From a virus, in UHGV virus genome UHGV-1551590: 10,283 nucleotides of DNA, one strand, 5' to 3'. Positions within the stretch are counted from its first letter, which is position 1; the number at the start of each line of letters is the position of its first letter. A program made the translations under genes and the position numbers. Of this stretch, positions 1-3,145 are shown piece after piece. Under the pieces are notes generated by a model. It searched no databases. It saw nothing but the letters and a program-made list of their open reading frames with translations, and was not told the DNA's origin.

Positions 1-242
1 TATGTCAGTAGATTATCCTTATAATGTTATTGGAGGGGTAAGTAGTTTTGCTTATTTTTTGGGAGGATGCATAAAAATAAAGCCACAATTTCAACAAGTG
101 TTATCATTAGGTAATGATAAATTAGTTTACATAAGCAAAGGAAAATCGGAGGGTATTATTTCCTGATTTTTGATTCTCATAATCAATGAATGTTTTTTGT
201 GAATATACTTATTTTAACCCTATAAATAATCAAGGTAATAAA

Positions 243-593
243 GTGCCTCCTCGTATCCCGAAAGCCTGCCGTGCTCGAGGTTGCCGTAATACCACCACAG
301 ACCCGTCAGGCTACTGCGAAAGCCACAAAAGCGAAGGCTGGAAGCAATACAAGCCAGGCCAGTCCCGACACCAGCGCGGTTATGGTGCGAAATGGGATGT
401 TATCCGTGAACGTGTGCTCAAGCGTGACAAAGGCCTGTGTCACTTGTGTTTGCGTGCCGGTGTGGTGCGCGAGGCGAAAACCGTTGACCACATCATCCCT
501 AAAGCACATGGCGGCACTGATGCCGACAGTAATCTGCAGAGTCTGTGCTGGCCGTGTCATAAGGCGAAGACGGCCCGTGAACGGTTGAAGTGA
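243..593 (+). CDS. Phage-associated HNH endonuclease (terminase-associated). Start uncertain: GTG at 243 preferred, in-frame ATG at 186 is the alternative.
   Basis: Translation contains a Cys-rich N-terminal motif (CRARGC...YCESH) and an HNH core (DHIIPKAHGGTDADSNLQSLCWPCHKAKT). It sits immediately upstream of the terminase small subunit, as in HK97-like phages. The ATG-186 N-terminus (MNVFCEYTYFNPINN) is AT-rich and low-complexity; GC content rises sharply at about 243, where an in-frame GTG follows AAGG at 232-235. Confidence 0.8.
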   Translation: MPPRIPKACRARGCRNTTTDPSGYCESHKSEGWKQYKPGQSRHQRGYGAKWDVIRERVLKRDKGLCHLCLRAGVVREAKTVDHIIPKAHGGTDADSNLQSLCWPCHKAKTARERLK

Positions 594-618
594 TAATGAT
601 TCTCAACTTCCTGAGGGG

Positions 619-680
619 AGGGGCGGGTCAAATCCCTGTGACCTGACGTCTTCCGGACTGCCCGCCCCGTCGTTTTTTTA
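619..680 (+). terminator. GC-rich inverted repeat followed by a T7 run; rho-independent terminator-like, or part of the cos region
   Basis: GGGGCGGG at about 620-627 pairs with CCCGCCCC at 661-668 (about 33 nt between them), followed by GTCGTTTTTTTA at 669-680. Lies in the HNH to terminase-small intergenic gap. Confidence 0.4.
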
Positions 681-718
681 TACCCGCGAAAAATGAAATT
701 TAACCAGGAGTGCCGCAT

Positions 719-2962: not shown

Positions 2963-3145
2963 ATGATCATGCTGATTCTCGCGCCTCTGGTGGGCGTGCT
3001 GGGGGCGCTTTTGCTGGCGTATGGTGCCTGGCTGATTTATCCCCCGGCGGGGTTTGTTGTTGCCGGGGCGTTGTGCCTGTTCTGGTCGTGGCTGGTGGCG
3101 CGATATCTCGACCGTACACAGTCGTCTGTCGGCGGAGGTAAATAG
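2963..3145 (+). CDS. Small hypothetical membrane protein (60 aa, two predicted transmembrane helices)
   Basis: GAGG at 2954-2957 precedes the ATG at 2963. Two hydrophobic segments ([24 protein letters not shown] and [17 protein letters not shown]) flank a PPAG turn. Stop TAG 3143-3145 overlaps the portal GTG start at 3145. GC content matches its neighbours. Confidence 0.55.

Follow-up and report, generated by a model that had tools for sequence, protein, structure and literature searches.

The 125-bp gap between the HNH endonuclease gene and the small terminase gene of UHGV virus genome UHGV-1551590 very probably holds the cos site of a prophage of the SfV/SfI/phiP27 type. This assignment draws on relatives in which cos has been mapped or annotated and on homology to them; by those defining features that sequence can test, the element belongs among the HK97/P27-type cos sites. 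The whole stretch of DNA that was analysed, 10,283 nucleotides in length, is referred to as the window, and positions are counted from its first base. Phages of the SfV/SfI/phiP27 type combine a myovirus tail with an HK97-like head and an HK97-like packaging module (HNH, TerS and TerL). The cos of this phage group is already known: it has been mapped in SfI and annotated in phiP27, SfII and SfIV. Three aspects may be undescribed, namely an upstream module, composed of a G-rich box (G-box) and TCAAATC, that is common to this group and HK97, the co-variation of the downstream half of cos with TerS, and the existence of genomic islands that carry cos alone. No description of the upstream (left) module or of the cos-only islands was found in a limited literature search, and a search of the literature for the motif strings produced nothing relevant.

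Packaging genes and the cohesive end

The gene order around the gap (HNH, gap, terS, terL) is that of the HK97-type packaging module, and the genes for the portal, prohead protease, HK97-fold capsid and tail sheath lie downstream of terL. The start of the window is organized as follows.

1-166: DUF6236-family gene, 3' end; AT-rich, the rest of the gene lying upstream, outside the window
243-593, + strand: HNH endonuclease gene, from GTG 243 to TGA 591-593; last gene before cos
594-718: HNH-terS gap, 125 bp, with the terS ATG at 719
719-1204, + strand: small terminase gene terS, P27 family, Pfam Terminase_4; Shine-Dalgarno AGGAG at 706-710
1218-2951, + strand: large terminase gene terL, HK97 type, Pfam TerL_ATPase and TerL_nuclease

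The HNH gene product matches Pfam HNH (PF01844, E = 1.8e-15), the HNH endonuclease 5H0M in the PDB (E = 1.6e-11) and HK97 gp74 (37% identity over 65 aa, E = 9e-10); its RefSeq-annotated start in a 99.6% identical prophage is at the position of GTG 243. The terL product matches PDB 6Z6D (E = 3.5e-25), which belongs to the same accession series as the HK97 TerS entry 6Z6E, and is 27% identical to the TerL of an HK97-like contig. Thus, TerL and HNH are homologous to those of HK97, whereas TerS is a different matter: it shares neither sequence similarity nor a Pfam family with HK97 gp1, and BLASTP, phmmer against the PDB and Pfam all failed to detect homology between the two. When a structural model of the window TerS is compared with known structures, HK97 TerS is the top match in two methods, the match being modest.

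The gene order HNH, cos, terS is the same in the Shigella phages SfI, SfV, SfII and SfIV, and two features distinguish the window from these phages. The first is the DUF6236 gene, an insertion that separates the lysis cassette from the HNH gene; it is annotated in a 99.6% identical prophage of E. coli MINF_1D, is absent from the SfV-group relatives, the homology to which starts at 244, and looks like a moron. The second concerns the 3' end of terS, where 8 nt, TCTGACAA (1193-1200), are inserted in comparison with SfV; they nearly duplicate the following TCTGAAAA, and the window TerS stops three residues early, at 161 aa versus 164 aa. A 13-nt gap between terS and terL replaces the usual ATGA stop/start overlap in the window, and translational coupling may be weaker there. 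Further downstream, between terL and the portal gene, a 60-aa ORF (2963-3145) matches ymfR as annotated in E. coli prophages and contains a terminator-like hairpin (2981-3008).

Evidence on the location of cos comes from SfI, in which the virion DNA ends were sequenced directly and found to lack exactly 10 nt relative to the prophage, 5'-TGCCCGCCCC-3' (PMC3636060). The same 10-mer occurs once in the window, at 659-668, so that the window holds the experimentally mapped cohesive end of a close relative. The authors of the SfI study contrast the packaging of this phage with that of the headful phages Sf6 and SfX (PMC3636060). The SfI record ends with this 10-mer and restarts at the base equivalent to 669, with 1 mismatch to the window over 613-668 and 100% identity over 669-900. 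The record of Edwardsiella phage EPP-1 ends with ...TGCCCGCCTC and restarts at the homologous base, and in HK97 the right end is ...GGGCAGGGGGGGGGATCAAATCTTCAAAACCTTTGCCCCAAATGACCGCCGCCAAA and the left end begins with GTTTGAATTTAACGCTAACCCGATTTTTTT; the HK97, SfI and EPP-1 records all break at the position equivalent to window 668|669. In the phiP27 record, the homologous 10-mer CGCCCGCCCC is annotated as cos, and the SfII announcement places cos at record positions equivalent to window 652-718. The SfI, SfII and SfIV publications name only the 10-mer or a broad range, with no layout of G-box, TCAAATC and TerS site. The expectation voiced in the preliminary description, that cos should lie in the HNH-terS gap, is therefore supported by the mapped SfI ends, the phiP27 annotation and the alignment to the HK97 ends.

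The HK97 genome ends in 10-nt 3' overhangs, and the HNH protein gp74 stimulates cos cutting by the terminase (PMC9410871, PMC11331095). Experimental demonstration comes only from close relatives, that is, from SfI for the identity of the cohesive end (PMC3636060) and from HK97 for the 3' polarity and the HNH stimulation (PMC9410871, PMC11331095). For the SfI group, we infer 3' polarity because the 10 nt are missing from the run-off reads at both ends, as expected of recessed 5' template ends. The top-strand cut is predicted at 668|669, and given a 10-nt 3' overhang, the bottom-strand cut would fall at 658|659, directly after an invariant GAC; the exact cuts in this element are thus assigned by homology and remain predictions. 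The two cut contexts differ in their conservation: around the bottom-strand cut the sequence is invariant (GAC|YGC), and around the top-strand cut it is variable (CCCC|GTCG, CCTC|CTCG and others; 657-662 versus 667-672 in alignment A2, described below). Such a difference would be consistent with one nick that depends on sequence and another whose position is set by distance. The ends of IMG/VR contigs are uninformative as an independent mapping of the genome ends, the positions of the motif matches showing no pile-up at cos.

Layout of the cos block

A search with tblastn of species-representative genomes yielded 43 loci with TerS 51-99% identical to that of the window; they come from Enterobacterales, apart from one in Cupriavidus and one on a contig labelled Bacillota. 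Once duplicates were merged and phiP27 and one satellite copy added, 37 distinct cos blocks were available (alignment A2; TerS 50-99% identical), which align almost without gaps, a single one-column gap being present within the block. The Bacillota-labelled contig (locus L005, JAEWTL010000102.1, a metagenome-assembled genome) carries an E. coli-type HNH-cos-terS arrangement with a 99% identical TerS, and its label is probably a binning or contamination artefact. In the window, the elements of the block are arranged as follows.

613-627, + strand: G-box GAGGGGAGGGGCGGG; G-rich in 37 of 37 sequences, G 622-623 invariant; the 5' arm of the inverted repeat (620-627) lies inside
628-637, + strand: TCAAATCCCT box (TCAAATC); AAATC 630-634 invariant in A2
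638-654, + strand: variable spacer of 17 nt, its length constant in A2; includes GACGTC 645-650
655-658, + strand: GGAC, left of the predicted bottom-strand cut; A657 and C658 invariant
659-668, + strand: cohesive end TGCCCGCCCC, predicted 10-nt 3' overhang; contains the 3' arm CCCGCCCC (661-668)
668-669, + strand: predicted top-strand cut (SfI, EPP-1 and HK97 ends); 669 is +1 of the packaged genome
669-681, + strand: AT-rich linker with T7 at 673-679; TTT 675-677 invariant
682-698, + strand: predicted small-terminase binding site ACCCGCGAAAAATGAAA, +14 to +30; CCGCGAAA (684-691) invariant in 37 of 37
616-698, + strand: -53 to +30, counted from the top-strand cut, probably the functional cos; the sole stretch kept by satellite-like islands

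The conservation of the individual elements among the relatives is far beyond chance. The invariant or nearly invariant positions comprise the G run, AAATC, C.T (636-637), AC (657-658), GC (660-661), TTT, CCGCGAAA and most of ACCCGCGAAAAATGAAATTTAA. The G-box is found also in HK97, and GAC is shared with HK97 and with two further types of right half considered below (types C and D). GACGTC is restricted to close relatives (phiP27 carries CCTGGCTG in its place), so the palindrome that the preliminary description included in its structure is not a conserved feature. The T tract is 5 to 7 nt long in 35 of the 37 sequences and is reduced to T3 in L016 and L047. Within the predicted TerS site, which is unique in the window, ACCCGCGAAAAAT is invariant at +14 to +26 (+1 = 669) and takes the form of ACCCG followed by an A/T tract, as in HK97. 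Shigella phages SfI, SfII, SfIV and SfV, together with several phages of E. coli and Salmonella, match the region at 93-99% identity; among 5,426 complete E. coli genomes, 1,153 contain it, or about one in five.

Other identities considered for TCAAATC were discarded. A tRNA or tRNA-derived element, to which a T-loop-like TCAAATC could point, was rejected because ARAGORN found no tRNA and Rfam has no match in the gap; the sole Rfam match in 1-1500 is a weak one to sR084 (111-173, minus strand, E = 0.4), far under the gathering score. An IHF site was rejected as well, the by-eye comparison with the consensus WATCAANNNNTTR giving no fit. No promoter was found in a scan of the gap.

The same flanking layout (G-box, TCAAATC, a spacer of fixed length, GAC) is common to the window and HK97. 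In HK97, the HNH gene precedes cos, the right end lies some 320 nt past the HNH stop and TerS is the first gene after cos. The G-box and ATCAAATC are present, ATCAAATCT is the counterpart of window TCAAATCCCT, the T of TCAAATC and the final base of the right end are 41 nt apart in HK97 as in the window, and GAC precedes the 10-nt 3' overhang (a predicted one in the window). The minimal TerS site of HK97 is CTAACCCGATTTTTT at +15 to +29, in which the C:G pair at +21 is critical and the A/T tract at +24 to +29 essential (PMC11331095); window ACCCGCGAAAAATGAAA occupies the position of this site. The two sites differ, however, in that ACCCG in HK97 is 4 bp further from the cut and the following tract consists of T rather than A on the top strand. 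HK97 also differs from the window in its overhang, CGCCGCCAAA, and in the AT-rich GTTTGAATTTAA after the cut, which contains no tract of five or more T.

In phiP27, the type phage of the P27 TerS family, CGCCCGCCCC lies at the position homologous to the cohesive end, and the G-box, TCAAATC, GAC and ACCCGCGAAA are found at the same spacing; the differences are a TerS that is 49% identical, a spacer without GACGTC, T5 instead of T7 and the A-tract AAATTAAAAA.

In the lambda cos, a staggered cut likewise has a small-subunit site next to it towards the start of the genome and a second element towards the genome end. Lambda has 5' overhangs of 12 nt, its small subunit Nu1 binds repeated R sites together with IHF, and no HNH protein is needed. 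One passage of the HK97 paper gives other lengths for the lambda overhang (PMC9410871). In contrast to lambda, the window has a single predicted TerS site, a TerS of the Terminase_4 family (P27 family, not Nu1-type) and an adjacent HNH gene; a search for repeats in the gap found no repeat family, the one 11-nt match in two copies (675-685 and 822-832) being taken as chance. The window cos therefore resembles that of lambda in outline and is not of the lambda type.

The conservation of the block could also be explained by a function in RNA, as a leader or operator that controls the translation of terS rather than a site in DNA. In most of the relatives, the invariant ACCCGCGAAAAATGAAATTTAA indeed lies just upstream of the terS Shine-Dalgarno sequence. 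In Xenorhabdus, Photorhabdus and Morganella, however, some 50-70 extra bases separate the block from terS, and therefore the block is not simply a terS leader; satellite islands keep it without terS downstream, and the gap shows neither a conserved RNA structure nor an Rfam match. A leader function is accordingly considered highly improbable.

The inverted repeat and the terminator question

The features that had drawn attention to the gap (594-718, 125 bp) are all present, that is, GAGGGGAGGGGCGGG at 613-627, an 8-nt inverted repeat, GACGTC at 645-650 and T7 at 673-679. The observation of the inverted repeat itself is confirmed: GGGGCGGG (620-627) and CCCGCCCC (661-668) are perfect inverted partners with 33 nt between the arms. 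The 3' arm corresponds to the last 8 bases of the 10-nt cohesive end, and the 5' arm falls within a separate element, the G-box.

By itself, the repeat is unremarkable. Perfect 8-nt inverted repeats with a gap of 3-60 nt between the arms arise in 7.8% of the dinucleotide shuffles of the gap, and their density in the window is 0.19 per 125 nt; the version composed entirely of G and C is rarer (0.1% of shuffles). The lack of significance at 7.8% would be compatible with a chance feature of an ordinary spacer, in a phage that packages by the headful mechanism or starts packaging elsewhere. Such an explanation is at odds with the conservation of the elements without gaps across Enterobacterales and HK97, and with the cohesive end mapped in SfI, for which the contrast with headful Sf6 and SfX was drawn (PMC3636060), and is extremely improbable.

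Nor is the pairing maintained among the relatives. The RNA fold is no more stable than those of shuffled sequences (z = -0.60 for the 125 nt; z = -1.56 for 610-685), and RNAalifold finds essentially no consensus fold among the 37 sequences (-1.66 kcal/mol, with 0 pairs changed on both sides). The 8-bp stem is paired in 74.3% of cells compared with 75.2% in column shuffles, its covariation is below that of the shuffles, and slid registers are about as good for covariation; in single-sequence folds, the G-rich and C-rich parts pair differently in different clades. A conserved hairpin, in RNA or DNA, was rejected on the basis of RNAalifold and the pair counting on this stem, and what looked by eye like a triple compensatory change in Gilliamella failed across the 37 sequences. 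The inverted repeat is thus not the functional unit but a by-product of composition: the arms are complementary because a conserved G-rich box faces a C-rich cohesive end, and the hairpin is not under selection.

The same data bear on the proposal that the G/C stem and T7 constitute a rho-independent terminator at about position 680, instead of or besides cos, which could isolate the HNH gene or, for example, stop read-through from DUF6236 or HNH in the lysogen. G/C-rich pairing followed by a T tract is indeed present in the window, T5-T7 is found in 35 of the 37 aligned sequences, and Xenorhabdus L032 has a strong hairpin directly before T7. When the segment upstream of the tract is folded, the predicted structure reaches to within 2 nt of T5-T7 in 25 of the 37 relatives, although this test is biased, the folded segment stopping there. 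A short-loop G+C hairpin directly before a U tract is not what the window contains, though: the loop is 33 nt long, a 4-nt spacer precedes T7, and a terminator scan made no call at the inverted repeat and T7. The stability does not exceed that expected from composition, the pairing is not kept in relatives through compensatory changes and its partners vary among clades, HK97 has a homologous cos without a T5+ tract after the cut, and the stem is broken in a satellite copy (CCAGCCCC). In lambdoid phages, late transcription has to pass through cos before it arrives at the head genes, and such terminators are ignored by Q-modified (antiterminated) polymerase. Furthermore, the HNH protein acts together with the terminase (PMC11331095), and therefore isolating the HNH gene from terS and terL makes little biological sense. 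A terminator that isolates the HNH gene is not supported, and a terminator at this site, whether in place of cos or as an additional role beside it, is unlikely.

Exchangeable halves and satellite-like islands

The cos reading can be extended to a scheme of packaging. A concatemer would be cut with a 10-base stagger, at 668|669 on the top strand and 658|659 on the bottom strand, leaving the 3' overhang TGCCCGCCCC on the right genome end and making 669 the first base of the left end. A small-terminase ring would bind ACCCGCGAAAAATGAAA at +14 to +30 (682-698), just inside the left genome end, and would position the large terminase over the cut site with the help of the HNH protein. The G-box and TCAAATC (613-637) lie upstream of the cut, towards the end of the genome, and their distance from it is fixed; together they would constitute a second element that must be recognized. 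Most likely, the nuclease side (TerL/HNH) would read this element or it would serve at termination, since this half is kept even with an unrelated small terminase. In the window, both the TerS site and this role of the left half are predictions from homology.

A scan of IMG/VR with the pattern GGNTCAAATC-N21-GACNGCC gave 121 matches, 109 of them with a G-box upstream. In these loci, one left half, common to the window and HK97, is joined to at least four right halves, namely the SfV type (that of the window), the HK97 type, type C (CACACCGCCGCAGGTTAGAAAAC) and type D (ACGCGCCCAAAATAAG). The right half changes with the TerS lineage: each adjoins a different one, with identity to the window TerS of 28%, 31% or an undetectable level. 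HNH (35-68%) and TerL (27-37%) are still recognisably homologous across the right-half types. A locus of a different kind, L081:3115-6947 (IMGVR_UViG_2711768073_000020), contains two HNH-cos-terS copies 2.87 kb apart that flank about 2.3 kb with leftward ORFs, with terL following the second copy only; packaging interference should be expected from two cos sites this close.

In some E. coli genomes, an isolated 83-bp match to window 616-698, 96% identical, occurs with no HNH gene or terS nearby. The island that contains it in E. coli NZ_CP048330.1 (L003:1-9100) adjoins clpS and has the cos copy at its end (L003:9001-9083); the genes of the clpS-adjacent island encode an integrase, a small HTH regulator, an Icd-like protein, a primase, SSB, a ClpP-protease/capsid fusion and a DUF1441 protein. 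At a coverage threshold of 80%, 44 E. coli genomes contain the cos flank of the island, and the cos-only pattern also appears in IMG/VR loci L088, L114, L134 and L162. The homology between island and phage extends from the G-box (-53) to +30, and these bounds (616-698) therefore delimit the probable functional cos; the right boundary, 698, coincides with the end of the HK97 TerS site. The 83-bp copy has the appearance of a borrowed packaging signal.

Related islands carry SfV-type, phiP27-like or C'-type copies of cos, as if the versions had been swapped to match different helper phages. In some island copies, TGCCAGCCCC replaces TGCCCGCCCC, and further related loci are L112, L070 and L122.

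The E. coli PICIs with Rpp and the cos SaPIs of S. aureus are comparable in that terminase-less islands carry a copy of the cos of the helper, and such copying is established for the E. coli PICIs that depend on lambda or 80. In the published E. coli PICI, the cosB of the island differs from that of the helper, and Rpp redirects TerS. In contrast, the satellite-like islands described here reproduce the HK97/P27-type cos in full, with the predicted TerS site, and they encode the ClpP-protease/capsid fusion and the DUF1441 protein. The idea that the latter is a solved Rpp-like protein was dropped: it has no sequence match in the PDB, and the Rpp paper makes no mention of DUF1441.

Taken together, these comparisons lead to a tentative proposal, with somewhat less than an even chance of being correct, that cos in the HK97/P27/SfV supergroup consists of two exchangeable modules, a deeply conserved left one, extending from the G-box through TCAAATC and the fixed spacer to GAC and the overhang, that would be read by TerL/HNH or used for termination like the cosQ of lambda and a right one that would co-evolve with TerS, and that one family of satellite islands may carry helper-matched versions (SfV-type, phiP27-type and type C') as its sole packaging signal.

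For this prophage, the annotation of the region would be settled, with 669 as the predicted physical left end of the virion genome and 659-668 as the cohesive end, and HNH, terS and terL form one packaging unit around cos. More generally, the comparison maps an HNH-assisted cos site base by base and in testable form. The site is found in about one in five complete E. coli genomes, and the map suggests that its function requires the upstream half, a part of cos so far not studied in HK97. The islands that apparently borrow only the 83-bp signal bear on the movement of prophage and satellite genes among Enterobacterales.
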